Below, in pieces: positions 18,101-58,724 of a DNA stretch of 64,000 nucleotides. Source of the stretch: Nemertoderma westbladi (lineage: Eukaryota; Animalia; Xenacoelomorpha). The notes under the pieces were generated by a model, which worked only from the letters and a program-made list of their open reading frames with translations, was not told the DNA's origin and made no database searches. The position numbers and the translations under genes are program-made. Numbering within the stretch: position 1 is the first letter of the stretch; each line of letters opens with the position of its first letter. The stretch covers positions 1 to 64,000 of the forward strand of contig JAUCBJ010007955.1 in the NCBI GenBank assembly GCA_032718475.1. Reading direction: 5' to 3'.

Positions 18101-18227
18101 TATAGAATTATATTCTCTAAATGCCGTGGATTTTCAAAATTTTATTTTATTCGAATTAACTTTGTAAAAGATTGCTTTGAATCCTCATTTGTATTTGTTA
18201 TATCTATTGTACGCCTATCGGTCAAGT

Positions 18228-18314: not shown

Positions 18315-18371
18315 GTACAGAATTTCAACTCATTTAAATTAACCGCTACAAATTAATTGCATTTGTCTGTA

Positions 18372-20001: not shown

Positions 20002-20012
20002 GTAGGAATATG
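20002..20012 (+). promoter_or_regulatory. Atypical primer-binding site GTAGGAATATG, complementary to LTR 18965-18975
   Basis: Directly abuts the 5' LTR end; lacks the TGG that would pair with a tRNA CCA; exact reverse complement of CATATTCCTAC. Confidence 0.55.
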
Positions 20013-23800: not shown

Positions 23801-26800
23801 CCAGCGAGAAGAGCGGGGTGGATTCTTAAAACTGGAGGATGTGTACCTTTTGATATCCAGGGAAGCAGTTGTAGAGACTCGATCTAACTACACTGACCAG
23901 CACATCGTGGCAGAAGGAATCACATTGCCATCCTCCAACCGACAAAAACCCCAGACAACATCCACTAAGACGGCCACTTACACCACACCGACGGAATCAC
24001 GACAATTCTCGGACGGTAGTAGGGTATCTGCGCCCATTGGAACAAAACAGACGAGACAACAACTCAGTACCGACTTCAGCGGCTGCCAATACTGCGAGCA
24101 TTTAGGCAAGCGGTATATCGGTCACAAGTTACGAGGTTGTCGACAATTTCGCGAGTTGAACTCAGAAGAACGACGGCTGCAAATACGGCCATTGGACTCT
24201 TGTTGGCGGTGTACGCAACACGGACACGTCCGTAAAGATTGCCCAAATACCGACACTTGTCCATCCTGTGGACGCAACCACGACGGTCTGCTCCACACAG
24301 ACAGCCACACACCGACAAAACGCTTCGCCAGGGAACACCCGGAAGCAGCAGCGAGATGTGATGCAGCCTACAGAAAACGAGAATCGAAAACGACTCCGAC
24401 CTTCGTGACCCATATTGAGGATTGCTTCTCTGAACAACCCGGATCGTCGGACGAAGAGTCAGAAGACGACGACGTATATTCGGATGGAGATGAACAGCCA
24501 TCGATCGCGCTTCTGACTACTGACCAACTGAAGGGATTCAGTGTAATTCCGATTAAGATTACTGGCACAAAGTGGAGTAAGAGAATCTACGCTATTCTAG
24601 ATTCAGCCTCATCTCACAGTTACGTGGATGAAAAGATAGCTGACGTCGTGACGGATCTCAGACAAGGTAAGCGTGTCAGTTATACCGTAAGTAGTATGCA
24701 CGGACAGCGTGCAATACCAGTGACACGAGTCAAGTTAAACTTAGACTCTCTTCTTCCGAAATCGCAACACAGCGAGAGGGAGAGGTCTTTGTTACCCTTC
24801 AAGGATTTGACCTTTGCGGCCACAAAAGACTTTAGTAACCTACTAGGTCCGGTCCCAGAACAATCCTTGGAGGACCGTAAGTATTTCAGACACCTTGGTG
24901 TACCTGAATGTCCTGTCAATTATAGATCGGTAGCCATGCTGATCGGGACGGACCAATTCAACCTACATCAAGTGTGGGAAACCAGACCATCGGCAGTCGT
25001 AGCGGGAAACGCATACGCCTGTAGAATGCCGATAGGGTGGTATACTCGAGCGCCTGTGCGCACACTAGACGTAAGTGACGAGGAAGACGATGTACGAAGT
25101 ACATGTAGTTTATTAACTACAAATTCAATCCATTCCTTTTCACGCGACGTGGACCATACTACCTTACAGACAAAACATAACAGACATGTAACTAGTATGA
25201 TAAGTCACAAGGAGCAGCTAACCCACCAGGTGAGTTTAGAACTTGGGGAGAAGACGAGTCAGCTAGAGATTCCATCGACGACAGATGATAACGCCGGAAG
25301 GCTTGCGAGTCTACCTACCCCAACAACCTCAACAATGCCCGTCGAGATCGATGATGACGCGTTGAGAAATCACCAATTGGAACAAGCTGTATTGGACAAA
25401 GAATTAACGGAGAAGACTATCAGGTGGTTAGAACAAGATACAGCTGAACCTGGTAGCTACGAACCTTGTATGTCGGAACAAGAGAAACAATCTTTGAGGA
25501 TCATGGAAGATACTATCCGCCAGACGAAAGACGGACATTATGAGGTAGGGATGTTATGGCGTAGCCAAAGTCCTAAACTCATAAATAACTATCCACTGGC
25601 TCTAAGACGTCTACACTCAATACGGCAACGTCTATTAAAGGACGAGAAAGCCCATCTGCAGTACAACACTCAGATGGAGACGTATTTGACTAAGGGATAC
25701 GCTATCCGAATGACTAACCCGGAGATAGTGACTGACCAAACATATTACTTGCCACATCACTTTGTGAGACACCCCGACAAACCAGACAAAGTACATGTAG
25801 TCAATGACTGTGCGGCTCTGTTTGAGGGAATGTCCCTCAATAGCGAGTTGATGGATGGACCAAACATGAATAATTATCTTATGGGGGTGATTATGCGCTT
25901 CCGTCAGCGTCAAGTAGCTTTTACTTGTGACGTTGAAGCGATGTTTCACCAAGTGAGAGCGTTAGAGCGAGACAGAGACAGTTTGCGGTTCCTCTGGTAC
26001 CCAGAAGGAGACTTAAGTCTACCACCGGCGACTTACCAAATGCAAGTTCGCGTTTTCGGTGCCAGGGACAGCCCAAACTGCACGATGTACGCCCTAAAAC
26101 AAGCCGCTAGGGATCAGAAACACCTGTATGACCCAGAGATAATTAGGATTGTGGAACGTGACTTTTACGTCGACGACGGATTACAGAGTTGCGACACAGT
26201 AGAACGTGCTACAACAGTAGCACATCAATTACGGGACTGCTTAGCGGGCGGAGGTTTTAACCTCACCAAATTCGCCTCAAACAGTGCCGAATTAGTAGAC
26301 TCATTCGGAACGACTGAGCGTGGAGGTGGTGACATAGACCTAGAGTTCGAACCACTACCGACGACCAAGGTGTTGGGGCTCTTTTGGGACCCAAACACGG
26401 ACAACTTTCGAGTGAAAGTGAGACTGGACAGTCAAGAAAACACACTGACAAAGAGATCATGCTTGTCAAAATTGAGCCGATTGTTCGATCCATTAGGATT
26501 CATCAGTCCAATAATACTGCAAGCCCGCATTTATATGCGCAGTATTTGGAAGGATGGACTGACATGGGACGAGCCGATCTCATCAGACCAAGTGGACTTA
26601 TGGAAGACCTGGGAGGCGGAATTATCTTCGCTAGAGGATTATTCCATACCCAGAGTCTACTTTCCATTACAAACAACATTTCCTGACAACTTGGAATTAC
26701 ATTGTTTTTCTGACGCCAGTGACAACGGTTTTGGTGTGGCAGCGTACTTGCGCAGACAAGTAGACTCAGCAGAATTCGATGTTTCGCTCATTACTTCTAA

Positions 26801-29570
26801 GGCAAAAACAATGCCTACTAAGTATATGACGACACCACGAGCTGAGCTACAAGCCGCAACCCTGTCAACCACCATCGTGAACCTCATACAGACAGAACTA
26901 CAGTCAAGTTTACAGATATTTTATTGGACTGACGCGACGTTGGTTTTATTTTACATAAACAACGACACACTTGAATTCAAGACATTCGTAGCTAACCGTC
27001 GCGCAGAAATTCTAGACCGTTCAATAAAAGAGGATTGGCGACATTGTCCCGGACCACAAAACCCAGCTGATATTGCGTCGCGAGGAATGATGCCTGAGGA
27101 ATTCTGTAAACCGGAAAACAAAGAATTTTGGCAACACGGGCCCCAATTCTTGCAGAAATCGACACAAGATTGGCCTCCGTTATACGACAACAAGTCTAAC
27201 ACTATCCCTAAGGACGCCGAAATCAAGAAACCAAAAAAGGGGAAGGCAAAGAAAAGGACGACGGCGGCAAAACTCAAGAAAAAACCGAAGGCGAAATGGA
27301 AAGATATAACTTCAAAGGTCAAGAGAGGAAGACTTGCGAGCCTTTCTACACCAGACATATCGCCAGACGGTCAACCAGACACGTTACTAGACGGTCAACC
27401 AGACGTTTTGCCAGACATATCACAAAATGTTCTACCAGACACTAGTAACATATTGACAAACAGTAAAGCCGCAGTTTCCCTATTGGAGCAGCCTTCTATT
27501 GACAAACAACCAGATACGTTACCAGACGTATCGCCAGACACATTACTAGACAGTCGACTAGACATTTTGTCAGAAACATCACAAAATGTTCTACCGGACA
27601 TTAGTAATGTATCGACTAACAGTAAAGCCGCAGTTTCCCTATTGGAGCGGCCTTGTATTGACAAACTACCAATTTTGACACACTTGAGCAACCATAAGCA
27701 CGGTGAAACCTCATGTATTACAGATGTGGGTAGTACCTACGCTAATGTAAATACAGGTGTTACTCTGCGCTCAAGAGACATACCAAACTTGCAACCTATG
27801 GTGAGACCTGGGATTAATGTCGGCAGAAAATTAAGTTTACCGAAACCCAGTGACCCCATAGAGTTCAAACCACCATTAACGATCGACTTACAAAGTACTG
27901 ACAATCAAGGTAAGAAGACGAAGAAGGACAAATTACTTGTAGACCCGGACGGATCAACAGTCAACAAGGGAATACCTACCGGCGGACCCGTGGGCCCTTC
28001 TAGTAATTCAAAACCTTCCAAAATCTCCATTGACTTACCTGATGACGTCACAAATACTCACGTCGACCGGATTATAAACTTAACAGACTCTTGGTCAAAC
28101 GCTTGCCGAAAGTTAGCGTGGATTGTACGTTTTGTACAATACGTTAAAGGCAAACGCGACTTTACACGTCGACTTACATTGGCTGAGATTGACAGGTGTG
28201 AGATTAAATTAATTCGCCATTACCCACTGCGATATTTCGCGCGCGAATTCACATCCATAAATCAAGGTCAACCAATCAAGTCGTCACCAATACTGAGTTG
28301 GAGTCCGATTATTTATAATGGCTTAATTTGTCATAAATCTCGGCTTCAAAACATTGACTTTAACACAAACTTTAGGTACCCAATAATAATACCGCAACAT
28401 CACGAACTACAACGTGCAATGATACTGGACGCACATTTACATCTGAAACACGCTGGAAGACATCACTGTCTTTCCTACTTACGTACAAGATTTGTATTAA
28501 TTAGACCCAGTAAAGCGTTAAGTTCAGTGACACGTACGTGTATTATTTGTAAAAAGGTACATTCTAGAATAGGTACCCAAGAAATGAGTGAACTTCCACA
28601 AGCACGACTTCAAGCATTCAGACCACCTTTTACAGAGACTGGAATTGATTGCTTTGGTCCCATACATACGAAACGTGGACGTATACTAGTAAAACGCTGG
28701 GGACTGATTTTCATATGTATGTCCAGTAGGGCAGTTCATATTGAACGTGTGATGGATCTTTCCACCAACGCGTTTATACTAGCACTGCGGCGATTTATCG
28801 CTAGACGCGGACTAGTGAAATGCTTGTACTCAGACCAAGGGACAAACTTTGTTGGTGCTCGGAATGAGATTGCTAGAGCCTTTAAGAAATTAGATCATGA
28901 TCAAATCTCGAACGAACTACAACCTCACAAGATTGTTTGGAAGTTTAATCCTCCGGATAGTCCTTGGAGGGGCGGAGTCTGGGAGAGATTGATTAGATCT
29001 ATCAAAACGGCAATGGCAAAGGTCATTCCAGTAAACCACATACTGACAGACGACCAACTGACAACACTGTTTGTTGAAATCGAGGCAATACTAAATACTA
29101 GACCAATAGTATTAGTACCCGATGACAAACAATCTCAGTTTGCTTTGACACCGGCGCACCTGCTTATGCAGGCACCGACCACATTGACACCTATTTCTAT
29201 TCCAATAGAAAGCGACAGCTACGGTAGAAAAGCGTGGAAAATCACGCAACTACTGGCTAACAAATTCTGGGAAATATGGCAAAACCATTATTTGCCCTCT
29301 ATTTCTGCCAGAACAACATGGTACAATAACACCCGCGCATTAAAGCCGGGAGATCACGTGCTGTTAGCGGAAGTGAATCTAAAAAGACGCTTCTGGATAA
29401 CAGGTGTAATTTTAGCCACACATCCATCTATGGATGGAGTGACAAGAACTGTGACGGTACGGACAATTGACGGTCGTACAGTAGACAGACCGACTCAACG
29501 TCTCGTACTTCTTGAAGAGACTCGTAATGAGTCTGGAGACTACAAATCTCCACCTAATACTAGTAAATAA
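20811..29570 (+). CDS. BEL/Pao gag-pol polyprotein, 2919 aa
   Basis: Coiled-coil N-terminus; PPKFSG..W..F gag motif (~23370); three Cys/His knuckles (~24083-24296); protease ILDSAS (~24595); RT YLPHH...FYVDD (~26166); Pao RNase H FSDAS...PRAELQAA...WTDA (~26709); integrase H..H/CxxC and IDCFGP...SDQGTNF...GGVWERLI. Confidence 0.95.
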   Translation: MSDKPDYTKNTPTDYDSCDGDKSAAEEQQGKTREPTEPTPCASPVHPTGVPDAVVRGDGRTEDFLTVPQPRYRETDMVSSAGSQESVVRSVGGYMAHITRSIGEGQRILDGLTAPMSRFEFYTLQVRVQSKVYKSVDNLVGLQDLARQRQDMDTQLRILEKLMIAREKLIQFKSTIRQIQQEQADQLLGESVSDELLQPEEEQELYRLDGQLKHLTDHLRMCGEDVGDWETVPEYTRETSPVRIESAPGILNQSLVSIRSEINEVSMVTSEVARQQQQFYRQQHEMEEQTQLLMIQTAVEEEKIRVANVARISHLQEQAELEAAEMERLELDIAQQAAAAELAQRTATAELERQTAAAAAAAELERQTETAELERKRLVSEARVEMKTRQIKAQQAIRQAEFEAQQQQTEQREKEVKLRFELEKRARELAETKENLDLLARDRSMRSRDGHDLDQIEVRHRQIQERLKEGSIGAPGRERQLVKDLCQRFPQVTPMFAPVTTKESVSIAGSSDISPIHGATEHRFVIPDKFTPPRATSSPIPKVKVSNPPITDRSSLLTGPALLTTKQVSPPLTPKPVIHYAYPMTFRPTRPLDSNAVIRPRLQFTSQSTTSRKTCEPTEQRRTVDTRPFNQCTSQSTTSRKTCEPTEQRRLVDTRLFNQCTSQSTTSRKTCEPTEQRRSVDDVPKRNVRIRTTQRTRARRPPYPDDSSTSSESDYPKREVFRTGAADEYKRERSDNSFADNPPQNTPTQKALQPTDAISTQQFADILRPVVNKLAQIEERLEEVQTDSSRNTEFEHNRHPKEPQRPVPSKNTSYQGKAPRRDINQCTNQGRETLNVAEEIAKFAARQGLPVQQPPKFSGSSKHWHTFVDYIESQIAVCAFTSREKFNYLLQTLSGEPKRLAETFVGVPDAFELAYDRLTSIYGGTVSMARSVIEELCKGGAITKPVDLLKLADEIKNAITTLRSIGQLDYGNTPTVLLKIIGRLHHRLRREWRKIEYQREERGGFLKLEDVYLLISREAVVETRSNYTDQHIVAEGITLPSSNRQKPQTTSTKTATYTTPTESRQFSDGSRVSAPIGTKQTRQQLSTDFSGCQYCEHLGKRYIGHKLRGCRQFRELNSEERRLQIRPLDSCWRCTQHGHVRKDCPNTDTCPSCGRNHDGLLHTDSHTPTKRFAREHPEAAARCDAAYRKRESKTTPTFVTHIEDCFSEQPGSSDEESEDDDVYSDGDEQPSIALLTTDQLKGFSVIPIKITGTKWSKRIYAILDSASSHSYVDEKIADVVTDLRQGKRVSYTVSSMHGQRAIPVTRVKLNLDSLLPKSQHSERERSLLPFKDLTFAATKDFSNLLGPVPEQSLEDRKYFRHLGVPECPVNYRSVAMLIGTDQFNLHQVWETRPSAVVAGNAYACRMPIGWYTRAPVRTLDVSDEEDDVRSTCSLLTTNSIHSFSRDVDHTTLQTKHNRHVTSMISHKEQLTHQVSLELGEKTSQLEIPSTTDDNAGRLASLPTPTTSTMPVEIDDDALRNHQLEQAVLDKELTEKTIRWLEQDTAEPGSYEPCMSEQEKQSLRIMEDTIRQTKDGHYEVGMLWRSQSPKLINNYPLALRRLHSIRQRLLKDEKAHLQYNTQMETYLTKGYAIRMTNPEIVTDQTYYLPHHFVRHPDKPDKVHVVNDCAALFEGMSLNSELMDGPNMNNYLMGVIMRFRQRQVAFTCDVEAMFHQVRALERDRDSLRFLWYPEGDLSLPPATYQMQVRVFGARDSPNCTMYALKQAARDQKHLYDPEIIRIVERDFYVDDGLQSCDTVERATTVAHQLRDCLAGGGFNLTKFASNSAELVDSFGTTERGGGDIDLEFEPLPTTKVLGLFWDPNTDNFRVKVRLDSQENTLTKRSCLSKLSRLFDPLGFISPIILQARIYMRSIWKDGLTWDEPISSDQVDLWKTWEAELSSLEDYSIPRVYFPLQTTFPDNLELHCFSDASDNGFGVAAYLRRQVDSAEFDVSLITSKAKTMPTKYMTTPRAELQAATLSTTIVNLIQTELQSSLQIFYWTDATLVLFYINNDTLEFKTFVANRRAEILDRSIKEDWRHCPGPQNPADIASRGMMPEEFCKPENKEFWQHGPQFLQKSTQDWPPLYDNKSNTIPKDAEIKKPKKGKAKKRTTAAKLKKKPKAKWKDITSKVKRGRLASLSTPDISPDGQPDTLLDGQPDVLPDISQNVLPDTSNILTNSKAAVSLLEQPSIDKQPDTLPDVSPDTLLDSRLDILSETSQNVLPDISNVSTNSKAAVSLLERPCIDKLPILTHLSNHKHGETSCITDVGSTYANVNTGVTLRSRDIPNLQPMVRPGINVGRKLSLPKPSDPIEFKPPLTIDLQSTDNQGKKTKKDKLLVDPDGSTVNKGIPTGGPVGPSSNSKPSKISIDLPDDVTNTHVDRIINLTDSWSNACRKLAWIVRFVQYVKGKRDFTRRLTLAEIDRCEIKLIRHYPLRYFAREFTSINQGQPIKSSPILSWSPIIYNGLICHKSRLQNIDFNTNFRYPIIIPQHHELQRAMILDAHLHLKHAGRHHCLSYLRTRFVLIRPSKALSSVTRTCIICKKVHSRIGTQEMSELPQARLQAFRPPFTETGIDCFGPIHTKRGRILVKRWGLIFICMSSRAVHIERVMDLSTNAFILALRRFIARRGLVKCLYSDQGTNFVGARNEIARAFKKLDHDQISNELQPHKIVWKFNPPDSPWRGGVWERLIRSIKTAMAKVIPVNHILTDDQLTTLFVEIEAILNTRPIVLVPDDKQSQFALTPAHLLMQAPTTLTPISIPIESDSYGRKAWKITQLLANKFWEIWQNHYLPSISARTTWYNNTRALKPGDHVLLAEVNLKRRFWITGVILATHPSMDGVTRTVTVRTIDGRTVDRPTQRLVLLEETRNESGDYKSPPNTSK
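22620..22855 (+). repeat. 84-bp in-frame tandem repeat (x3) inside gag
   Basis: TSQSTTSRKTCEPTEQRR repeated three times. Confidence 0.9.
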
Positions 29571-30234
29571 TTAGGAGTTTACAAATAGATTTCCACGTAC
29601 CTGTACACTGTAGTAAGGACAGCGGTAGAATTCCATTGTCTTTATATGTGAACATTGAGGGTAGTACCCTTATGTGTCACATAGGAGCAGGATTTGTAGG
29701 TATAAGAAATGGAATTCTACTTGGAACTCACAATATTGAGACATTTTCGAAAATTTAGACAATCCATTTGGATTTGAAAATTTTTTAAAAAATTTTCTCC
29801 AGTGAATAGATTTCAGGGTACAGTCGGGTGGAACTTAAAATTAGAGAAACAAGAGAGGAAGACTTGCGAGCCTTTCTTAAAATTTTAATTAAATTTTACA
29901 CAGTCTTGTTTCAATAAGTTACGTCAATAAATAGACTCCCCTATATTTATTTACTAATTCTTGACTGCTTATTTTCTGATAATAGTTTGGGATCAAAAAG
30001 TGAGTATTTTAGACTCACGGCCAGTTTAGCCCAAATTCGTTTTTATTTCGGCAAAAAATTTTAGATAAGAAGCAGCGTGTCATTAAAGAAACCCTAGATC
30101 TTAGGCTATGGGTAGGAGGTTAGAGCGTTGTCGAGCCCAAAGGGCAGACGAAACTCTCACGTCTCCTCACAACTAACTACAAACTCTGTTGTATTCCCTC
30201 TAGTAGTAATGATTATGTAACTACACCCCTAATT

Positions 30235-33200
30235 ATGGAGAAAGGGATACAAGGAGAGCCGAGATGGGGATATGATATCCAAGAGGAGGCAGCAGCGCCA
30301 TTCGAAAGATTTGGAGCCAAGGACTATACTATATTCGGTATAAAAGAATTATCGGAAAGTACAGCGAAACTCGCGAGAACTAAATATGACTCGAACGTAT
30401 TAAAGAGAAGACAAAATGCATTAAACGAAAGAATCGAAAGTTTGCGCAAAACCTTCAACGAACTTTACCCGTACGACGCTTTGTGTGATACGGGAGACAT
30501 TAGCGAAGACCCCGATACTGAAATTAGTCGTTTGTATCATACCATGCAATACCTAAAGGCGCACGAACCTATGCCCGCGGTAAGAGATGAATTTGATGGA
30601 ATGCATCTTTACAGACGAACTCGAGGGGACGATAGAGAAACCAAGGAAGCATTTTCAGTTTATAAACTTTATTATCAATGCGGTTCTTGTATGCGCGAAC
30701 AACGAAATGCGATTCCGATGCGTTTGAATAAGGAAAATCCCGAACCGATATTGGCGAGGTGTTCGAATCATCAACAACTACGCTACCAGGAAGGAGGGTA
30801 TCCTTTATCGAATCCATATCATTCATTTGCTATGACCGGACCAAAGGCGGGAGAAACTGTCATTTACCCATCTAAGGTTGTTGAACCCGATGTATTCGAA
30901 CTTACGCTGGACGAGGCAAATCAGTCAACCCGCGAAAAGAAAGAAGCTCTTAGCCTATACAGAGCCTACAAGGCTTTCGAGAAAGGTGAGATGGAAGAAT
31001 GGGGTGGAAGACTCGCGAGCCTACCTTGCCATTGGACGTCACACGATCAAACTTCAGCTAAGGAGATGACACCGGAAGTTTTCGAGAGCATAAACTTTGC
31101 TCAAAACGTTATTCAGAGACTACAGATTGCATCCCCGGAGAGGACAAGAGAAATGCAACCGTATAGTACTTCAACTACGAAACCATTGAGTACGACACTC
31201 AACTTTCCTATTAGTATACCAGTCCGACAGGATACAACGTACGAAATACCCATCGTGGATCATCCAGAAATCATTTCAAACTTGGAGTTTCTTCCTGCAG
31301 TTGTTTTTAGCGATATGAGTAAGATATATGATTTACGTAGACATATTACTCAAAAGGTCGTGTACAACGTTCCACCTCATATTCAAGACTTTAAGGAACT
31401 GGATAGAGCTGGTGCCGATATAGCTCCGAGTAATCTGAAAGGATATCTAACCAAGACGATTCGTTTATGGATTGGAACCGGAACCTTCGAGTCGGATACA
31501 GATATTGCCGCGGATTGGCGAGGTAAGGTTATTCGTTTCGAAGATGATAAGGATATAGAGAAGATTTGGCAACCTTCGGAAGAATTGTTGGATGAATGGA
31601 ATAGAACGTTTAGATCGTTTCAGGAAAACGGTTACATGTTTTACGACAACGAGGGCGGCAGTCATCAGCAGAGTTTGACTTCTAAGACTATACAGATTAG
31701 AGCGGCGGACGGAGTCCTGCACGTTTTCAGTAGACAGAGGAGCGACAAACGAATGCCGATACCTCCAGCGAATACAAGGCGACACCATCTTATCACCGAC
31801 ATAGTAAAGAAGATGGACCAAGCTTGTAATATCGACGCTAGAATGCTACCGAAGATGGTAAGAAACATGATTTTAGATAAAACTGTTGTAAAGATTGGAT
31901 CAGGAGTAAGGGAGGACTTAATTAGCGACTTCGCCGGCATGACGGACAGCGATGACCGACTACCGACACCTTACGTCGACACTCGACCTCTTATTTTGTG
32001 GTCTATAGAACAGGGATATTTTCGTGAGTACAATACTCAGAAGACTGGAACTGGATACATTTCCTACCTGTTATTCAATTGGGATTATAAGGAAAATAAG
32101 AGAAACAAGTATATTGAAACTTATGGAGAAGGTGATACTCCAGATATGAGTGAGTTTGAATCACAGCTTAAATGGAGAGGATGCGTGTATTGGGCTATTA
32201 CGTCACCTCCAAGAGCGGTCTTACAATATTATTTAGCAATAGAGTCGTCAGTAAATGTTTGCCTAATCGCCGACATTGTGTCTCGGACTCTCAAAAGACA
32301 TCCACTTTGTCTCGGAGAAGATCATACGTTCTACATGGAAGGGAGAATTCGTACCGACGTGTTTAGACGATTCCTTGAACCCTTCTACAACTCCGACGCT
32401 CAGTGTAATGCCTTTACTCGAGCAGGATTTAGTATATTTCGAGACGTGTATCTTCGCTGTGCGGGATCTCTTATCGAAAGACCATCTATGTTTACATTGT
32501 TACCCTATGAAGGAGAACGTATCGTGGAGATTACGGAAGAATCACGGCAGACGCGCGCGCCTATCGGTCACCTCGGTGATGATTTCGAAGTAACTACTAC
32601 GATCGCTGACGATCCTTTAGAGGAACTTCTTGAGATAGAAAGGAACCTCCCGAAGAAATCTCAGACGGAGATTCGACAACTTGAAGCAACAGATGCTATA
32701 GTTTGTATACAACCTTCAGAAACCTACCAACCCATAGACCCAGATGATTACGATTATAGTATGGGAGGAAGCGCTCGACCGATTGGAGATCTTATATACG
32801 AACGAGTGTGGTACCCTGCCAATACGATGTGTAGTAAATGTGGCGTCGCTGGACATCATATGACGAAGTGCAGTGGAAAGCACATTACTACGACTCAGCT
32901 AATCTGTGGATGGTGTGGGGATCAAGGGTCTCATACCTTTTATACTTGCTGGAGATTTATGGCTCAATGTACTTATTGCAATATAAAAGGACATCGAGCA
33001 TCTGAATGCCAACTAAGAGACATACCTTATGAACACGAATCTGTAAAACTCGTGAGGAAGTTATTTGATGAGTGGGAAGATTTAGCCGACGAACATGTAT
33101 CGGCACAAAGAAGACGGTTTCCGATGAGAGCGCATCTCGGATTTTGGGCGGTAAATCCTCAAACGATGATGTCGGAAGGATATATCTCCGCTATGCCCCA

Positions 33201-33960
33201 ATATGACGAACTTATCGAGGTTGTCGATATTTTGCCCCACGACAGTGGATTCCGAGTGGTGCGCGAGTATCTACTACAGATTCACCCGGATAACAAAAAC
33301 ACGTGGAATTTTCAGAAAGTCGTTAACCGCATTACGTATGGTGAATTCGATCGTTTCCGAACTGAAAAACGGAATAAAGGAGCTTGGTTAACCGTCGCAT
33401 GGGCGTACCGAGCCGCGTTTTACCACAAACGTATACGAGCGAGCGTATTCGAGGAAGAGGAGGTCCTAGAGGCGACGAATATACCAGCCACTCCGGTTGC
33501 GCCGTCTGCACGTCACCCTCGGGAGGACGGGCAGGGTAGGATCATACGGGTCCAGAAAGTGGGCCAACAATTAAAGAAAATTATTAATATAGAAGAACGC
33601 AAGGGAGTTGAGCCGACCATTCGAGTTACTCGGGATACGTCATCGCTTCCAAGAGAACCAGTAGGAGGATCGGGACATACACCAGCTGATCAACAGGGGG
33701 CGCAAGCTACTCTTGGGTCTGCGTCGTCCGCCTTTCGCGCGTTCCCAGACGTTCTACCAACTGTAGTGACAACTGATCGGTCACGAGGAATCGGTCGAGG
33801 TTTTGGGATGCCAAATAGACGAATTTGCGAGGAAATAGTCGCACTGTCTCTCAACGTCCCAAGTAAACCAGTGACTCGCCCCATTAGTCCCATATCGCGA
33901 GCAAAGTCACCTGTGCGCAGTTTTCGAGGACGCGGCAGGGCTCGATCCACTAAGCGATAA
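30235..33960 (+). CDS. Extra retrotransposon ORF, 1241 aa: DEDDy (WRN/EXD/RNase D-like) 3'-5' exonuclease-like domain plus zinc knuckles
   Basis: ExoI FYDNEG..TIQI; LPKMVRNMILDKTVVKIGSGVREDL (ExoII); YVDT; ExoIII-like W...VLQYYLAIE; knuckles CSKCGVAGHHMTKC, CGWCGDQGSHTFYTC, CTYCNIKGHRASEC. The uninterrupted ORF lies between pol and the 3' LTR. Confidence 0.8.
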   Translation: MEKGIQGEPRWGYDIQEEAAAPFERFGAKDYTIFGIKELSESTAKLARTKYDSNVLKRRQNALNERIESLRKTFNELYPYDALCDTGDISEDPDTEISRLYHTMQYLKAHEPMPAVRDEFDGMHLYRRTRGDDRETKEAFSVYKLYYQCGSCMREQRNAIPMRLNKENPEPILARCSNHQQLRYQEGGYPLSNPYHSFAMTGPKAGETVIYPSKVVEPDVFELTLDEANQSTREKKEALSLYRAYKAFEKGEMEEWGGRLASLPCHWTSHDQTSAKEMTPEVFESINFAQNVIQRLQIASPERTREMQPYSTSTTKPLSTTLNFPISIPVRQDTTYEIPIVDHPEIISNLEFLPAVVFSDMSKIYDLRRHITQKVVYNVPPHIQDFKELDRAGADIAPSNLKGYLTKTIRLWIGTGTFESDTDIAADWRGKVIRFEDDKDIEKIWQPSEELLDEWNRTFRSFQENGYMFYDNEGGSHQQSLTSKTIQIRAADGVLHVFSRQRSDKRMPIPPANTRRHHLITDIVKKMDQACNIDARMLPKMVRNMILDKTVVKIGSGVREDLISDFAGMTDSDDRLPTPYVDTRPLILWSIEQGYFREYNTQKTGTGYISYLLFNWDYKENKRNKYIETYGEGDTPDMSEFESQLKWRGCVYWAITSPPRAVLQYYLAIESSVNVCLIADIVSRTLKRHPLCLGEDHTFYMEGRIRTDVFRRFLEPFYNSDAQCNAFTRAGFSIFRDVYLRCAGSLIERPSMFTLLPYEGERIVEITEESRQTRAPIGHLGDDFEVTTTIADDPLEELLEIERNLPKKSQTEIRQLEATDAIVCIQPSETYQPIDPDDYDYSMGGSARPIGDLIYERVWYPANTMCSKCGVAGHHMTKCSGKHITTTQLICGWCGDQGSHTFYTCWRFMAQCTYCNIKGHRASECQLRDIPYEHESVKLVRKLFDEWEDLADEHVSAQRRRFPMRAHLGFWAVNPQTMMSEGYISAMPQYDELIEVVDILPHDSGFRVVREYLLQIHPDNKNTWNFQKVVNRITYGEFDRFRTEKRNKGAWLTVAWAYRAAFYHKRIRASVFEEEEVLEATNIPATPVAPSARHPREDGQGRIIRVQKVGQQLKKIINIEERKGVEPTIRVTRDTSSLPREPVGGSGHTPADQQGAQATLGSASSAFRAFPDVLPTVVTTDRSRGIGRGFGMPNRRICEEIVALSLNVPSKPVTRPISPISRAKSPVRSFRGRGRARSTKR

Positions 33961-34019
33961 AAGGGAGGGCAAGGGTGGACGGAAGACTCGTGAGCCTTTC
34001 TTATGATTTTGTGATTTAT

Positions 34020-34600
34020 TTGAATTTATATTTATATTTGTGTTTATTCCGAACTTAAGCAATTTGTATTGTTCCGAATTTATGAAATTTAGAAATAAGA
34101 ACTCATATTTAGTAAGATTTATAGTTAGTAAGAATTTATATTTGCAAGATTTATATTTTGTAAGAATTTATATTTTATATTTGTGATTATTCCGAACTTA
34201 TGCAATTTATATTATTCCGAACTTATGTAATTTATATTGTTCCGAATATTATGCAATTTACATTTTATAGGCAGTATTACAGTGAAACAGAAAGTAAGAG
34301 TAGATGGAAGACTCGTGGGCCTTTCTTATAGTTTTATTTGTAAAATGTTATATTTTGTATTTAGAAAGTTTTATAGTCAGAAAGTTTGTGCTTAGAAAGA
34401 CTCATTTTTGTAATTATTCCAAACTTATGCAATCTACATTTAGGTACGAAAGTATTTGTAATTACTTGAATTTATGCAATATTTGAGATGCAATAGTAGA
34501 TGGAAGACTCGTGAGCCTTTCTTATTGTTTTCATTTATTTGTATTTGTAATTGTTTGAATTTATGCAATATTGAGATGCAATAGATTTATATTGGTGAAT
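34020..34600 (+). repeat. AT-rich 3' UTR repeats (TTATTCCGAACTTATGCAATTTATATT-like)
   Basis: Six or more degenerate copies between the ORF2 stop and the 3' LTR. Confidence 0.7.
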
Positions 34601-34816
34601 TTAATTTAGATTTATATTGTACTTACTTAGTAAAGCCTTAAATACGTAAAGTTTGAATTTGTAATTATTTTGTATCGAATCATTACGTAGAAAGGAAGTA
34701 TTATTTGAAATTTAATTGTAAATATGTAAGTACGCCCTAAGTATCCTATAGTTTGATTGATTATTGGTGAAAACCGTATATTTTATGCACGATAATATCC
34801 TGTTTTCATGGAGCGG

Positions 34817-36717
34817 TATAGAATTATATTCTCTAAATGCCGTGGATTTTCAAAATTTTATTTTATTCGAATTAACTTTGTAAAAGATTGCTTTGAATCC
34901 TCATTTGTATTTGTTATATCTATTGTACGCCTATCGGTCAAGTGGTTCAGTAGCTCAGTCGGTAGAGCGTTGGAAATTATATGTGTAGTAGGTATTGAGT
35001 TCGAATCCTAGTAAGTGCGAATTATTTTTTGTACAGAATTTCAACTCATTTAAATTAACCGCTACAAATTAATTGCATTTGTCTGTACCAATGAGACTGT
35101 AGTTATTTGATTGTAACCAATGTCGTGCAAGTTATATATTAGCTGGACCAATAGCTATCTTTAAAACCCTGTTAGAACCTATAGAACAATCGAGAATTTT
35201 CTCGATTGATTGCGGCACAAATTTAGTATATAAAGGTGCGATTTGTTCATTAGTTATTCACAATCTTATACTTCTCAGATTATCTTATCTTAGCAATATT
35301 CTGTCGTGCTTAGTTTATTTCAGATTACATTGTATTATAATTATATCTTCTGTAATAAAGTCAGAATTATCGCTAATCTGCTTTTTTCTATCTGTTTTAC
35401 CATGATTCACTACGGTGAACAAAGTTAAGGACAGGATGGCCGGCTAGAAGATCGGGCCGCAGCAATGAACGGGAACATCACAGGAATGTAGACGAGAGAC
35501 AACCCGCAATACCATCTTGAGTTGTTCGCCCATCGCCTGAAAGGTTAGACAGCGTTCGACATCTCGCTACCTAAGCGTAAGACCAAAAGATCAAAGGTAG
35601 AAGTAGTGGCACGCTGTGAGCCTAAAATTACATCTTAGGGACTGTACTGTCTTGATTCAGGAAAACCCACAGTAGACCTTCATATTCCTACGGGTAGAGG
35701 GAAAGAGCAGGCAGATACTAGTACGCAGATAGGACGTAGGCACACCGGTACGAAGCATACAAATTGGTAGGGTGCAGCAAACTGTACGCCTAACTCTTGC
35801 TAAGTGCAGGTGTGTGTGCGACTATTTGTAGTACGACAGTGTCCATTGCATTAGGACTTGTAGGCTAGGGGGGTTGCTGTGTTTTCACCTGAATTGGGAT
35901 TGTACCGTTCAGGCGGTAGGGCAGTTTACAGCTAGGCGCAAATAAATTGAGGCTATTAGGGATACTAACATCTACCGTGTCCCCGCCAACGCCCTAATAG
36001 GAAGTTACCCGGACTACCTGGGTGACTAAAATTCTAGATAGGAGCCAAGATAGCTATTAGTAACTGTACGCCTACAGTAGTAAACTAACACATCTCTTCT
36101 CAGTATTAGGGACCTGGTACCTAAAAATTGCCGAATTCTGGGCGTAGCATTAACCTTATGCCTGAATTTGAGTCCTGGAAATACGCAAGAGGGGAAGGAA
36201 CCTTGCTATTCGTGAGTATTGGACCTACAAGTTACAAAATTATAATATTCGTAAAATGCACACCGTACCCAGTAATTATATATGTGAAGGAGCAAAACTG
36301 TTTTTGACCGTTCAGAATTAACACACGCGCGTTAGAAATTATTTACACCTCAAAATATATAAAATTAACTTTTGTCCGTACTGTGCTTTGCCCGCTAGTT
36401 AGACATCTCCAAATCTCTGCCTGTACCTAGCTAGCGTCTCTTCGCCCAAACCATATAAATCACACCGCGGCAAAGTGTACGAGCCCCTTAGTCCGTCAGT
36501 GAGTCAGCCTGATTTTAGGATTCGCTGCGCGGGATTTTGTTTTATCGAAGTTTGTCTGCTCGTAGACTGTTTTCTGCCTCACCGGTTATAAGAGATCAAT
36601 ACTGCAATATATTCGCTTACTTAAAGTTTACTGTTTTGGTGAGAAGGTCGGATTTATGATTTGATTCACAAACTTTACAGTAGGATATTGCAGGTATTGT
36701 TACCGTCTCTTCATATA
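34817..36717 (+). repeat. 3' LTR (1901 bp)
   Basis: Copy of 18101-20001, preceded by a short purine-rich GGAGCGG (possible PPT) and followed by TSD TTCAG. Includes a tRNA-like cassette at 34944-35030. Confidence 0.95.
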
Positions 36718-37230
36718 TTCAGATTAAGTTGATACATTTCAGATTAACTTGATACATTTCAGATTAACTTGATACATTTCAGATTAACTTGATAAATTTC
36801 AGATTAACTTGATACAATTCAGATTAACTTGATACTTGGCAGATTAACTTGATACTTGACAGATTAACTTGATACATTTCAGATTAACTTGATACATTTC
36901 AGATTAAGTTGATACATTTATGATTAACTTGATACATTTCAGATTAACTTGATACATTTATGATTAACTTGATACATTTCAGATTAACTTGATACATTTC
37001 AGATTAACTTGATACATTTCAGATTAACTTGATACATTTCAGATTAAGTTGATACATTTATGATTAACTTGATACATTTCAGATTAACTTGATACATTTC
37101 TGATTAACTTGATACATTTCAGATTAACTTGATACATTTCAGATTAACTTGATACATTTCAGATTAACTTGATACACTTCAGATTAACGTGATACATTTC
37201 AGATTAACTTGATATTTTTCAGATTAACTT
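36718..37230. repeat. 20-bp minisatellite, right part (~25 units), running into the exon's splice acceptor
   Basis: Same unit as 17491-18100. Confidence 0.97.
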
Positions 37231-37244
37231 CATTTTTCTTGCAG

Positions 37245-37756
37245 TGTGGGAACATATTCGTGGAGAAAGCATTGTACCAGTAGACCAATGTTGGGTTGAG
37301 TTCTATAAAACCTTCTGGTTTACGTTTACTGCAGCGTGCATCGAGTTCCTTACGCCTCTCGTAACTGTCAGCTACTTCAACCTGCAGATCGCGCTCAACA
37401 TACGCCGTCGCACAACGAAAGCACTAAGAAGGAAAGCTGGAAGTACCAAGGCGAAACAAGATTGCAAGAATGCAGGAACTTCTCGTTCTACCCTAGAAAT
37501 GATATCACAGAATACCTCTCTGCCGTCTGAAGAAGCTAATATAGACAGTAAGGAGTCCATAGATGAACCCGGTCCCGTTATACGTCTGGATCCTGTACCG
37601 GAACGTTTAATAGATGCAAGAAGGAGCACCACCAACGATCTCGAGAACGTCCGTCACCTTAGCAACCTGAAGCGCGACCAGCGTGCTGCACGCTCATTGG
37701 CTATCATTGTGGGTGTGTTTGCCATATGCTGGGCGCCATACACAACACTGACTTTA
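37245..37756 (+). CDS. Internal exon (ECL2-TM5-ICL3-TM6) of the same aminergic GPCR
   Basis: WEH...QCWVEF..FWFTFTAACIEFLTPLVTVSYFNLQI..NIRRR...RDQRAARSLAIIVGVFAICWAPYT (CWxP). Acceptor tttttcttgcag|, donor |gtaagt. TM1-2 and TM7 exons were not found in the window. Confidence 0.92.
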
Positions 37757-39274
37757 GTAAGTTTGGCACTAATTTTTATTTTAGTCTACAATAATTATTG
37801 TAAAAAGTTGTAAATATATATAGGTAAATATATATAGGGTTCTATTTAATTGACGATAATTTCATAGCAGTTTTAGGATAATTTGTTTTAAGGGTCTGTC
37901 ATTCTGGCAGGGGGTAAATCAGATTAGTAAACGTTTTAGTCTTACTTACCACACTACGTTATAGACTATAATATGAGAAATAAGACAATTTACAAACCAA
38001 AGACTGCACTCAGCATCATTTCCAATTTAGCTCCCACATTTAGTAGTGTTATAATGAGTGGAACCAGGCCCAAAAGTTCAGTAAATTACAGATCGGAAAA
38101 TATAGTGGATAGTTAGTTACGGATTAGAGGACACCAAATTCAATTATTATTATTATCATACATTATCAGAAGATAAGTACAGTCAAGGACAAATTATAGT
38201 ATAGAATAAGCACAAGTAATAAAGGTAAGGTAAAGTAATTAGCTGCAAACATTGCGAAAGTTTGACATACTTAACGTTCGTTCAGATACCAAAACGTTGC
38301 CAAAACCAAAACCAAAACCAAAACGCATTGCCGTGCTAATATCGAGAAATTGGGATATTGTCGAAGGTCTGGCCGTCCTTCGCATTTTTGGGGTAATATT
38401 TGTAGCATTTGGCACGTTCAAACAGCCATTGTATGGATTTACCTTTGTAGAAAATGTCGTTAATGATATTGTCACATCAGACACTATAAAGGATCCGGTG
38501 CGACTTACAACAATATGTAAAGGCAACTTCTTTGTTATGAGTAAAATTGAGGGCGAATACCAAATGTTTGCTCCTGTATATTATATATAATATTAAAATC
38601 AATAATATAATATTTATATTAAAATTAATAAGGGAGTTGTGGCGGCTGGCGGCACAATTTTGTCGGCACAGTATTCTTAATTTATATGTAATCTTATTTA
38701 TGATATCATAATATAATACAGCTGCAATGCAGCGCAATGCAGCGCAATGCAGCATCCCTAATGTAGTATTAGTTATACTGAACGAAGATAAAACATTCCA
38801 TTCGCTTGGCTCGCGTTTGCTTTGCTTTCATTTTGGAGAATAATAATGAATTTGACTGGAATTTGATTTGAATTCTGAAATTTGACTGGCTTTTGGACAG
38901 ATAATTCAAATTTCTTTCTTATATTTGCTAGAATCATTAGTAACTAATAGTCAAATTGAACGGGTTAGCAAAATTAATTTTGTATTTTGTTTTTAGAATT
39001 GCAATTTGATTATTCGTAGATGTACCATATTCGTATGGTAGGAAATTGGAATCTATTATGTCAGTTAGTTTTATATCTTGGCTTTTACTAACAAAGAAAC
39101 TAGTGGACCTATAGAACTAAAAACATCAAAAAATTGAAATCCGTACAAAATTTTCGGTATACCTTCGTGACTGCCCATCTTGGCCAACTATATTTTGCAT
39201 TATGGTATTATTGGAATTACCCAATTTTCTTTACAAATTTTTTTTAATTTATACATAAATACGTATGAATTTAA

Positions 39275-40807
39275 ATTACAGTAACTCTATACTTCAGTAG
39301 GTAGTATGTCGTTGGGTTTGTGTACTTATTAAATTAACACTATACTTACACCGTAGTATATCGTTGTATTTGGGTACTTATTAAATAAACACTATGCTTA
39401 CACAGTATATCGTTGTGTTTGGGTACTTATTAAATTAACACTATACTACTGTACAGTAAGTATATCGTTGGGTTTGTGTACTTATTAAATTAACACTATA
39501 CTTACACCGTAGTATATCGTTGTATTTGGGTACTTATTAAATAAACACTATGCTTACACAGTATATCGTTGTGTTTGGGTACTTATTAAATGAACTCTAT
39601 ACTTCAGTAGTAGTATATCGTTGTGTTAGGGTACTTATTAAATGAAAACTATATTACTGTACAGTAAGTATATCGTTGGATTTGGGTACTTATTAAATTA
39701 ACACTATACTTACACCGTAGTATATCGTTGTATTTGGGTACTTATTAAATAAACACTATGCTTACACAGTATATCGTTGTGTTAGGGTACTTATTAAATG
39801 AACTCTATACTTCAGTAGTAGTATATCGTTGTGTTAGGGTACTTATTAAATGAAAACTATATTACTGTACAGTAAGTATATCGTTGGATTTGGGTACTTA
39901 TTAAATAAACACTATGCTTACACCGTAGTATATCGTTGTATTTGGGTACTTATTAAATAAACACTATGCTTACACAGTATATCGTTGTGTTAGGGTACTT
40001 ATTAAATGAACTCTATACTTCAGTAGTAGTATATCGTTGTGTTAGGGTACTTATTAAATGAAAACTATATTACTGTACAGTAAGTATATCGTTGGATTTG
40101 GGTACTTATTAAATAAACACTATGCTTACACAGTATATCGTTGGGTTTGCGTACTTATTAAATTAACACTATACTTACACCGTAGTATATCGTTGTATTT
40201 GGGTACTTATTAAATTACTGTAACACTATACTACTGTACAGTAAGTATATCGTTGGGTTTGGGTACTTATTAAATTAACACTATACTACTGTACAGTAAG
40301 TATATCGTTGTATTTGGGTACTTATTAAATTAACACTATGCTTACACAGTATATCGTTGTATATTTGGGTACTTATTAAATTAACACTATACTTACACCG
40401 TAGTATATCGTTGTATTTGGGTACTTATTAAATTAACACTATACTACTGTACAGTAAGTATATCGTTGGGTTTGGGTACTTATTAAATGAACTCTATACT
40501 TCAGTAGTAGTATATCGTTGTGTTAGGGTACTTATTAAATGAACTCTATATTACTGTACAGTAAGTATATCGTTGTGTTAGGGTACTTATTAAATTAACA
40601 CTATATTACTGTACAGTAAGTATATCGTTGGGTTTGGGTACTTATTAAATTAACACTATACTTACACCGTAGTACTGTATATCGTTGTATTTGGGTACTT
40701 ATTAAATTAACACTATACTTACACAGTATATCGTTGTGTTAGGGTACTTATTAAATGAACTCTATACTTCAGTAGTAGTATATCGTTGTGTTAGGGTACT
40801 TATTAAA
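39275..40807. repeat. ~50-bp minisatellite (TATATCGTTG..T.GGGTACTTATTAAAT.AACACTAT...), left part
   Basis: Tandem array with variable unit length. Confidence 0.95.
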
Positions 40808-42427
40808 CGCAATAATTTTTATTGTCCGTTTAAATCCTTTTTTTGTCCTTTTTTTTTATTTTTTATGTCCTCCAAAAGTCTAACGTTAGGTTCCATGCTA
40901 CCGGTTTCTCTACTGCTGTTCTCTCAGGCTATCAGTACCGGTATTAGTATATATAGCACTATTTTGCTGTATTGTATGTACAGATGTAGGTATAAAGCAG
41001 GTATTTCTGTATTTTAGTACCGGTACCGGCACCGGTACTGCTATAGGCCTACTGTGTAGCCTACCATTTAAATACGGTAATGGTAGGCCTACCGGTTGTG
41101 CTAATAAATTTTAAATAATTGATAGGCCAAACTGGATTGCAGGATTGTGGAAAATGTGGATATACCTTTCACATAATTTAGGCCTATTACTGTATTAGTT
41201 TTATAATCAATAATGGATCATGACTACTGTCTGAGTAGTGTTACGGATAACCTGCTCCTTTCCCTGATTTGGTAAAGTGACTGTTTATTGTTTTGGTTAG
41301 AAAATCCGGCCTTAACCTGCTCCTTTCCCTCAATTAGTTAAGTGATCGTTTATTGTTTTGGTTATAAAATCCCGCCTCTGTAACCTGCTCCTTTCCCTAA
41401 ATTGGTAATGTTATCGTTTATTGTTTTGGTTAGAAAATCCTGCCTCTGTAACCTGCTCCTTTCTCTCAATTGGTAATGTTATCGTTTATTGTTTTGGTTA
41501 GAAAATCCCGCCTCTGTAACCTGCCCCTTTCCCTCAATTAGTTAAATGATCGTTTACTGTTTTGGTTAGAAAATCCCGCCTCTGTAACCTGCTCCTTTCC
41601 CTGAATTGGTAAAGTGACCGTTTATTGTTTTGGTTAGAAAGGCCCGCCTCTGTAACCTGCCCCTTTCCCTCAATTAGTTAAATGATCGTTTATTGTTTTG
41701 GTTAGAAAATCCCGCCTCTGTAACCTGCTCCTTTCCCTCAATTAGTTAAGTGATCGTTTATTGTTTTGGTTAGAAAATTCCGCCTCTGTAACCTGTCCCT
41801 TTCCCTCAATTAGTTAAATGATCGTTTATTGTTTTGGTTAGAAAATCCCGCCTCTGTAACCTGCTCCTTTCCCTCAATAAGTTAAGTGATCGTTTGTTGT
41901 TTTGGTTAGAAAATCCCGCCTCTGTAACCTGCTCCTTTCCCTCAATTAGTTAAGTGATCGTTTATTGTTTTGGTTAGAAAATCCCGTCTCTGTAACCTGC
42001 TCCTTTCCCTGATTTGGTAAAGTGACTGTTTATTGTTTTGGTTAGAAAACTCGGCCTTAACCTGCTCCTTTCCATCAATTGGTAATTGTTTTTGGCTATA
42101 AAATGAGTGTTTTGCTACGTCATGTGGTAATCGATTATCGACAACAACCACAAACTATTAAATATAGAGTCTTTTTACCACAGGCGCATATGGAAATCTA
42201 TCTCATAGTCTATAAATCATGGAATCATGGAATGTTTTGGCACAGGCATAGTGAAATCAACTGTCTGACAGTCCAGAAATCAGCAGTCTGACAGTTTGAA
42301 GAAATACACATAAAAAGTCATTAAAAGGACAATAAAAGTCATTAAAAGGACAACAAAAGTCATTATGCATAATTCGTAAAAAAAAAGGACAAAAAAGTCA
42401 AATAAAAGGACATAAAAAATCACTGCC
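40808..42427. mobile_element. Non-autonomous TIR DNA transposon (MULE-like), inserted in the satellite
   Basis: 9-bp TSD CTTATTAAA (40799-40807, 42428-42436); imperfect TIRs CGCAATAATTTTTATTGTCC / GGCAGTGATTTTTTATGTCC (rc); no ORF. Confidence 0.75.
41248..42095. repeat. 68-bp tandem repeat inside the TIR element (~12 units)
   Basis: TAACCTGCTCCTTTCCCTCAATTAGTTAAGTGATCGTTTATTGTTTTGGTTAGAAAATCCCGCCTCTG. Confidence 0.92.
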
Positions 42428-58670: not shown

Positions 58671-58724
58671 TAGTGAATGGTGTTCCGGCAAAAACATTAT
58701 CATTTGTCAAAGATTTGACCTTAG

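Follow-up and report, generated by a model that had tools for sequence, protein, structure and literature searches.

An 18.6-kb BEL/Pao retrotransposon lies within the window, a stretch of 64,000 nucleotides from Nemertoderma westbladi, and its second gene, ORF2, encodes a protein in which a DEDDy-like exonuclease domain is followed by three CCHC zinc knuckles. We propose that ORF2 is a 3′-end-trimming DEDDy ribonuclease equipped with knuckles, which acts as a counter-defence factor against host silencing, and we give this reading a probability of roughly 0.35. ORF2 occupies the position of env, after gag-pol. The features of the element are as follows.

18101–20001, + strand: 5′ LTR, 1901 bp, with termini TATA...TATA, not TG...CA
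18965–18975, + strand: candidate self-primer, an 11-nt segment of the 5′ LTR complementary to the sequence that directly follows this LTR
20002–20012, + strand: primer-binding position, directly after the 5′ LTR
20420–20426, + strand: splice donor G/GTGAGT, from a contig joint
20811–29570, + strand: gag-pol in one BEL/Pao-type ORF of 2919 aa, with YVDD as RT motif
20899–34518, + strand: 17-nt motif, 11 copies, in gag, pol, ORF2 and both untranslated regions
30172–30203, + strand: branch-point-like ACTAAC, pyrimidine tract and acceptor AG, from the contig joint and the sequence
30235–33960, + strand: ORF2, 1241 aa, without internal stop
30235–31524, + strand: ORF2 N-terminal part, aa 1–430, of no recognised family, with CxxC and CxxH
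31597–32304, + strand: ORF2 DEDDy-like exonuclease domain, aa 455–690, with D471, E473, D561, Y666 and E670
32830–33009, + strand: three CCHC zinc knuckles of ORF2, aa 866–925, following an acidic linker
33832–33957, + strand: ORF2 tail, basic and rich in Arg, Ser and Pro
34817–36717, + strand: 3′ LTR

The element is young, intact and multi-copy. Its two LTRs are identical except for 6 of 1901 positions and are flanked by a 5-bp target-site duplication, TTCAG (18096–18100 and 36718–36722), which sits within a 20-bp minisatellite. The LTRs and the duplication, together with a single gag-PR-RT-RH-IN ORF carrying BEL-specific domains, place it in BEL/Pao (Belpaoviridae); the Pfam matches of gag-pol are Peptidase_A17 (4e-42), DUF5641 (4e-20) and DUF1759 (8e-11). 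The TG...CA termini and tRNA primer site that are usual for BEL/Pao, and not defining, are absent here, the element having TATA...TATA termini and a self-complement instead. A tRNA gene search found none. Searches for related loci with the integrase and with the ORF2 profile confirmed none among metagenome, viral and genome contigs.

An earlier note on this DNA had described ORF2 as an intact frame with an N-terminal CxxC...CxxH, three knuckles and an Arg-rich tail, and as something other than env because it lacks a TM segment. All of this is borne out. The frame is free of stops, CGSC lies at 30679 and CSNH at 30760, the three knuckles begin at 32830, 32905 and 32968 (CX2CX5HX4C in the second), and the tail (aa 1201–1241) holds 11 K/R and no D/E. 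The highest 19-residue Kyte–Doolittle mean is 1.38, on the ExoIII helix, so that by hydropathy ORF2 has no membrane segment and thus no transmembrane anchor of the kind that marks an envelope glycoprotein. The linker is strongly acidic (17 D/E in the 60 residues of aa 781–840). Pfam searches with ORF2 and its parts identified the knuckles only, with no exonuclease match, and NCBIfam gave nothing relevant for ORF2. The HRDC domain of the RNase D/Rrp6 group had no Pfam match in ORF2 or its homologues, and residues 690–780, behind the nuclease domain, have no assigned domain.

The homologue search gave five matches, of which three distant ones (P0003, P0005 and P0006) were retained; they share the layout of exonuclease-like domain, linker and three CCHC knuckles. 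P0002 and P0004 match the knuckles only and were dropped. Residues 1–430 of ORF2 are missing from all three homologues, and a PDB sequence search with them returned no match. The stretch behind the knuckles looks alike by eye; with a three-homologue profile of it, ORF2 did not come out ahead of 1000 shuffles, and we make no claim for it. A word-indexed search yielded no homologue among 5869 candidates; in two others, of 7996 and 6480 candidates, the sole match was P0005 itself. The family profile (ORF2 plus the three homologues) matched 0 of 301 bacterial genomes in a search run with no positive control, and one plasmid match was judged to be chance.

Within the domain, ExoI reads D471-x-E473 (31645 and 31651, not about 31642 as first described). 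The other motifs of the earlier note are present as given: ExoII KIGSGVREDL at 31891, with D561 at 31915; YVDT at 31972, whose Asp we take as part of a conserved motif after ExoII and do not count among the catalytic acids, of which there are four; and ExoIII Y666-x3-E670 (32230 and 32242). D471, E473, D561, D582 and Y666 are invariant in the four aligned family members, at about 22% identity. Of the acidic residues on whose conservation the earlier note made its reading depend, D471, E473 and D561 are kept in 4/4, and the ExoIII acid is Glu in ORF2 and P0006 and Asp in P0003 and P0005. Among 69 bacterial PF01612 domains this acid is Asp in 66 and never Glu, and a literature search on the replacement of Asp by Glu at ExoIII yielded no data.

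The family profile was compared with a profile of these 69 bacterial PF01612 (DEDDy) domains. Hhalign gave 95% and a score of 56.5, as against 19.5 for the best of 100 column shuffles and 10.0 for the reversed profile. The match spans aa 462–615 (ExoI to ExoII) and places the ExoI D-x-E and the ExoII Asp in register with the DEDDy family. The ExoIII segment alone aligns in register with a score of 10.2, not above its shuffles (16.6), and ExoIII was located by motif only. Because of this, and because ExoIII reads Y-x3-E, we describe ORF2 as DEDDy-like and not as canonical DEDDy. Against the bacterial profile each of the three homologues outscores all 804 decoys; ORF2 on its own scores 0.8 bits, equalled by 3 of the 804. 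In the ESM Atlas, 24 of 30 matches to aa 420–760 are PF01612 clusters (0.92), the row shown carrying PF01612 on 50% of cluster members. A DEDDy-like domain with knuckles in the env position, as first described, is thus supported by profile comparison.

The proposed WRN/EXD/mut-7 affinity within the DEDDy group fares less well. EXD2 comes first in a PDB sequence-profile search (E 0.057, not significant), with Egalitarian at rank 4 (E 0.46), and four bacterial PF01612 subgroups score alike against the family profile (30–34). The two AlphaFold models have pLDDT values of 31 and 40, too low to use; the top eight Foldseek rows are EXD2 (E 0.078–0.65, TM at most 0.21, not significant), and a VIA-align fold search gave no Z of 5 or more. 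Judged from its sequence, the domain very probably has an RNase H-like DnaQ fold, and we lean slightly towards catalytic activity in spite of the Glu at ExoIII.

Alternatively, ORF2 could be a captured passenger of no benefit to the element, or its domain might be something other than a DEDDy nuclease, a reading for which the low-confidence folds leave room. Six of the 12 listed ORF2 differences are synonymous (P 0.03–0.16 by mutation model), and there are copies with deletions of about 2 kb across the exonuclease domain (joints 30374 to 32407 and 30394 to 32519). Against this, 3.7 kb have stayed free of stops with splice signals of their own, the motifs are invariant at 22% identity within a domain that matches the PF01612 profile, and relatives of about 81% identity in the host runs keep the exonuclease and knuckle DNA with 0–3 gaps. 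We consider a passenger or a non-DEDDy domain unlikely.

ORF2 is likely to be translated from its own spliced RNA. One contig of host run X4 (labelled ‘DNA?’) joins 20419 to 30203, with canonical GT..AG borders when the cut is shifted by +1 (donor 20420, acceptor 30204); the acceptor AG lies 31 nt upstream of the ORF2 ATG, and a 3-codon upstream ORF starts at 30209. The depth of X4 has a saw-tooth form resembling oligo-dT RNA data and drops near the first AATAAA (35354), although contig depth cannot place an RNA end. The earlier note contained neither the splice joint nor the two sequence elements described next, a repeated 17-nt motif and a primer site complementary to the element's own LTR.

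The 17-nt motif starts at 20899, 22645, 22729, 22813, 25296, 27327, 29857, 31006, 33981, 34306 and 34502. These 11 exact sites compare with an expected 0.00, the pattern itself having been drawn from the sites. All are on one strand in the interior of the element, in two reading frames within coding DNA, and none occurs in the LTRs or flanks. The central four bases vary between C and T only, with both G kept. A small hairpin of the same form is possible at every site and is the minimum-energy fold in 5 of 9 folded sites. The motif is absent from viral contigs and has no Rfam family.

Such a distribution raises the possibility that ORF2 is an RNA-binding adaptor for the 11 motifs, similar to Egalitarian or Rev, serving export, transport, stability or packaging, with cutting weak or irrelevant. 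The C/T-only variation and the shared hairpin are consistent with this, as are spliced expression, which resembles that of retroviral accessory genes, the Glu at ExoIII of ORF2, and the ranks of EXD2 and Egalitarian in the PDB search. Among the stem-loop signals bound by Egalitarian is that of the I factor retrotransposon. Egalitarian retains the five DEDDy residues but requires them neither for RNA binding nor for function (bioRxiv 2025.08.03.668247); conserved DEDDy residues are therefore no proof of a nuclease role. On the other hand, nothing ties ORF2 to the motif; its reader could be a host protein or the knuckles of Gag, and a near-palindrome of this kind could also serve as a site in DNA. 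In stability the hairpins do not exceed shuffled sequences (z −1.4 to +1.5), and two of the four family members keep Asp at ExoIII. We hold the adaptor only tentatively, as nearly as likely as the trimmer.

The second element concerns priming. TGG is absent from the 40 nt after the LTR, which therefore has no primer site for a tRNA 3′ end. The first 11 bases after the LTR are instead complementary to 18965–18975 (copied in the 3′ LTR at 35681–35691). Of 3000 shuffled LTRs, 6 contain a match of this length, as do 12 of 14,779 interior positions. A published criterion for self-priming asks for at least 10 bp of LTR complementarity to a site 0–5 bp after the LTR (PMC6317226); here there are 11 bp at offset 0. 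Initiator-like letters lie at 18964–18970, and the LTR has competing promoter and end signals (TATA at 18511, AATAAA at 18638). Computed primer pair probabilities are near 1 if the RNA starts at 18965/6 and 0 if it starts at 18542. The depth drop near 35354, if an RNA end, would fit badly with self-priming from 18965, but we give it no weight as evidence.

In the 5′ LTR an acceptor-like AG follows two bases after the end of the complementary stretch, so a 2-nt primer overhang is conceivable, and ORF2 might mature a self-made primer by removing, once the RNA has paired with the primer site, its unpaired 3′ nucleotides as far as the edge of the LTR. No splice joint at this AG occurs among the 13 joints of X4, however, ORF2 lies outside the packaged polyprotein, and the Tf1 primer is made by RNase H alone. 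We consider primer maturation rather unlikely. The same holds for a wider picture of a BEL/Pao element resembling a complex retrovirus, whose spliced nuclease-knuckle protein would bind eleven signals in its own sequence and trim a self-made primer in place of host tRNA. A literature search found no report of BEL/Pao self-priming. Like Tf1 and Tj1, the element has a primer site complementary to its own LTR and no tRNA site; unlike it, elements of that type are Gypsy chromoviruses or copia TAR, and the sections of PMC4600332 and PMC6317226 at hand mention no exonuclease gene.

The earlier note had suggested three roles: primer trimming, cDNA proofreading, and interference with piRNA 3′ trimming. 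Proofreading of cDNA, or trimming of DNA ends, could suit a genome as large as 18.6 kb, and DEDDy enzymes include single-strand DNA nucleases (PMC5408684). It is the least likely of the three, and very improbable: ORF2 is not fused to the RT, its CCHC knuckles point to RNA, and in the passages of PMC6431247 consulted neither Ogre (16–25 kb) nor Burro (over 30 kb) is credited with a gene of this type.

A precedent among rotifers, to which the earlier note pointed, does exist in print: Gypsy-like and Penelope-like elements of rotifers have been described with DEDDy accessory genes (PMC5408684). The rotifer DEDDy ORF had no clear link to copy number, which counts against the trimmer. Because LTR and Penelope-like elements replicate differently, we infer a role independent of the copying mechanism. 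As described in PMC5408684 and PMC6431247, the LTR retrotransposons Juno and Vesta (in ORF3) and the Athena/Terminon elements of bdelloid rotifers have an accessory ORF of DEDDy-like type, which in the LTR elements takes the place of env; it has no membrane segment and one changed acid (DEED), whereas here the fourth acid is changed (D-E-D-E). By description only, ORF2 is set apart by its BEL/Pao carrier, 1241-aa length, three knuckles, 430-aa N-terminus without family and splice joint. A literature search found no report of a BEL/Pao exonuclease gene; supplementary material may list further elements. The C. elegans BEL elements Cer13 or Cer7 are reportedly equipped with an extra RNase D-like ORF, which would be a BEL/Pao precedent if right; unlike this element, Cer7 and Cer13 carry env, and the literature passages found on Cer13 mention no nuclease.

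Among cellular proteins, EXD2, Egalitarian and EXD1 have ExoI and ExoII in register and give the best, although not significant, sequence-profile and Foldseek matches; unlike ORF2 they have neither knuckles nor a retroelement context. The Trypanosoma brucei RNase D, TbRND (PDB 7c42/7c45), has the same order of DEDD exonuclease, linker and several CCHC fingers, and trims small guide RNAs (PMC7797062). It differs in being a cellular mitochondrial enzyme with four fingers, a short linker and Asp at ExoIII, and its sequence matches the family profile at the knuckles only (E 0.003). The top ESM Atlas match of P0005, a lead only, is a Euglenozoan PF01612 + zf-CCHC cluster (0.89), likely the TbRND clade from its domains and taxon.

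By analogy with TbRND, the substrate of ORF2 would be RNA. In the trimmer that we prefer, ORF2 would be an accessory protein of the BEL/Pao element, likely made from its own spliced RNA; the three knuckles would grip single-stranded RNA while the DEDDy-type active site would trim 3′ ends in the 3′-to-5′ direction. Free ORF2 would most likely act on host small RNAs or on RNA tails that mark decay, and may in this way shield the element's RNA from host defences. The choice of target is the weakest step, and against it stands that many trimmers are blocked by the 3′ methyl found on mature piRNAs.

With its splice signals and two candidate cis RNA targets, the motif and the self-primer, the element makes the questions of nuclease versus binder and of host versus own RNA testable on one protein. 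Since 2017 it has been asked what exonucleases captured by retroelements do, and this element adds a case in another LTR superfamily. If the counter-defence reading is true, an animal transposon would encode an enzyme directed at small-RNA silencing or at RNA tailing, a clear mechanism of counter-defence.

ORF2, the 1241-residue open reading frame in the env position, lies within a retrotransposon whose main features are listed here.

18101–36717: LTR retrotransposon containing ORF2
20420: splice donor, G/GTGAGT in the window sequence at the joint
20811–29570: single gag-pol ORF of 2919 amino acids, with Peptidase_A17, DUF1759 and DUF5641
30235–33960: ORF2
31 nt upstream of the ORF2 ATG: splice acceptor, with ACTAAC, a pyrimidine tract and AG

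Peptidase_A17, DUF1759 and DUF5641 are BEL/Pao domains, and all lie in the 2919-residue ORF together with reverse transcriptase and integrase motifs. A long repetitive Lys-rich insertion with a 159-bp tandem duplication is seen between RNase H and integrase (27000–27700). The LTRs are 1901 bp long, differ at six positions (all transitions) and have TATA...TATA ends, with a 5-bp duplication on both sides, within a 20-bp minisatellite. The window was found, whole or in part, in five of nine listed sequencing runs; runs X1 and X2 yielded thousands of related variant contigs, an abundance that fits a multi-copy family, contig depth not being equivalent to copy number.

Right after the minisatellite is a rhodopsin-family GPCR exon (7tm_1, 37208–37813), which marks the host as an animal. 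The window also holds two copies, 94% identical, of a LINE with endonuclease and reverse transcriptase, one with a 1046-residue open frame (14019–17159) and one interrupted by stops (58619–60676). Inverted repeats of about 310 bp, 94–97% complementary and 5 kb apart (661–969 and 5897–6204), are likely to represent a DNA transposon. A large tandem array of about 155 units of 39 bp occupies 50393–56700, with further arrays at 39271–40807, 41367–42053 and near 43342–45786.

As the earlier note described, ORF2 is free of stops throughout, has its named motifs within one codon of the positions assigned to them, and lacks a membrane segment by hydropathy, the 19-residue maximum being only 1.38. When residues 401–960 were searched against 1.84 billion representatives, five matches were obtained, of which three (P0003, P0005 and P0006; E 5e-6 to 1e-3) cover the putative nuclease; the other two (P0002 and P0004) were dropped, their similarity being limited to the knuckles. 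The three homologues are unnamed single-member ENA clusters of 558–648 residues, 21–23% identical to ORF2. They share with it the order of nuclease motifs, charged linker and three knuckles, and all lack its 430-residue N-terminus. A profile of the three scored 73 bits against residues 456–681 of ORF2 (best of 1000 shuffles 6.3), a figure that is partly circular because the homologues were originally found using ORF2.

Pfam gave no exonuclease match for ORF2 and a weak PF01612 match for P0006 (E 0.046), and we therefore built a bacterial PF01612 reference profile from 69 of 150 matches in 61 genomes. Against it the homologues scored 7.5, 8.0 and 14.2 bits (best of 804 decoys 4.4), and ORF2 alone 0.8 bits, equalled by 3 of the 804 decoys. 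The family profile matched the PF01612 profile with a probability of 95% and a score of 56.5 over 110 columns, a stretch that takes in ExoI and ExoII as well as the DT motif, whereas no score above 19.5 was reached in 100 column shuffles. The ExoIII segment is in register with YAA.D, at a score (10.2) below the best shuffles. The bacterial domains were also divided into four subgroups, whose labels reflect nothing but ORF length, and these tied against the family profile. In a PDB profile search EXD2 ranked first and Egalitarian fourth, neither significantly. Two predicted structures had pLDDT values of 31 and 40; in the better of these low-confidence models, helices and strands follow one another as they should in a DnaQ-like domain, and EXD2 fills all of the top eight rows of its Foldseek search (E 0.078–0.65, TM at most 0.21). 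VIA-align gave no match with Z of 5 or more among 48161 chains. ESM Atlas matches, taken as leads, agree with the assignment. On these sequence comparisons the domain very probably has a DEDDy (DnaQ-like) fold, and we lean slightly towards its being a catalytically active, if putative, nuclease.

The earlier note had made conservation of the acidic residues a test of this assignment. D471, E473 and D561 are invariant in all four aligned members, as are D582 and Y666; conservation does not extend to the ExoIII acid, which is Asp in two members and Glu in two, the latter including ORF2. Bacterial PF01612 domains have Asp here in 66 of 69 cases and Glu in none. In a high-depth X2 contig that covers the Glu codon, 1 of 255 letters departs from the window sequence, so the Glu is probably shared beyond this copy of the element.

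Of 1146 differences 40 were listed. ORF2 holds 12 of these 40, with six synonymous, one of them in the D471 codon, against an expected 22–33% (P 0.03–0.16); gag-pol has 8 synonymous of 16. This excess is a weak sign of selection on ORF2. Among 32 pieces listed, relatives of about 81% identity align over the nuclease, in one case for 981 nt with two gaps and in another for 337 nt without any. Two contigs of greater length align over the knuckles alone. Both results would be expected if the domains were constrained. Some copies have 2-kb deletions across the nuclease.

One contig of run X4, labelled 'DNA?', joins 20419 to 30203 at depth 211, with GT..AG at the cut shifted by +1; the shorter side of the joint is 29 letters, slightly below the tool's bar of 31, and the joint is absent from the listings for X1, X2 and X5. 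If X4 is DNA, the joint stems from a spliced RNA that was retro-copied; if it is RNA, the contig represents the message itself. Whichever holds, ORF2 is likely to be made from a spliced subgenomic RNA, separately from Gag-Pol. Env genes are expressed from spliced subgenomic RNA. A three-codon upstream ORF (30209–30220) lies between the acceptor and the ORF2 start. A possible extra leader intron (19978–20241) has a donor-like CAG/GTATTG in the LTR and, on its 3′ side, a branch point, a pyrimidine tract and CAG at 20241; none of the 13 joints of X4 corresponds to it.

A near-palindromic 17-nt motif occurs 11 times, always on the forward strand and only in the interior of the element (20899–34518), at sites in both untranslated regions and, in two frames, within gag, pol and ORF2. 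An 84-bp tandem repeat accounts for three of the gag sites, and three further sites lie in the repetitive 3′ UTR. The motif can form a small hairpin, of stability not above that of shuffles, and is a candidate packaging, export or protein-binding signal. ORF2 may tentatively be seen as an adaptor that binds this motif, which we rank a close second among the explanations: Egalitarian keeps its catalytic residues, yet acts as a stem-loop binder, with binding that extends to a retrotransposon RNA (bioRxiv 2025.08.03.668247).

After the 5′ LTR there is no tRNA-type primer site. The first 11 bases there (20002–20012) pair perfectly with 18965–18975, a match length that 6 of 3000 shuffled LTRs also reach. 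By a published definition (PMC6317226) this makes the segment a candidate self-primer; self-priming LTR elements are described in PMC6317226 and PMC4600332. A competing TATA/AATAAA pair lies upstream of the self-primer segment. In the 5′ LTR an acceptor-like AG comes after the match, and the A of this AG is one of the six LTR differences. Letters resembling tRNA A and B boxes occur, within the window, in the two LTRs only (18228–18290 and 34944–35006), and neither ARAGORN nor Rfam called these segments. That ORF2 trims the element's primer seems improbable to us. We give still less credence to proofreading, since the accounts of larger elements in PMC6431247 include no exonuclease gene.

The domain layout of ORF2 recalls that of TbRND (PMC7797062), which combines a DEDD nuclease with four CCHC fingers and acts on small guide RNAs by trimming them. 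Literature searches confined to main texts turned up neither an exonuclease gene nor self-priming in any BEL/Pao element. In nematodes, Cer7 or Cer13 may have an RNase D-like ORF. A 2026 survey of elements with env genes never uses the word 'exonuclease' in its main text (PMC13524379). The rotifer precedent mentioned in the earlier note is indeed published (PMC5408684): DEDDy genes of putative activity were acquired at least twice by rotifer LTR elements and also by Penelope-like elements (PMC5408684, PMC6431247). That such genes were taken up by elements with different modes of copying speaks for a function at the host interface, and for this reason we favour, at a probability of roughly 35%, an RNA 3′-end trimmer: the ORF2 nuclease would trim RNA 3′ ends, and this trimming may counter host silencing or RNA tailing.
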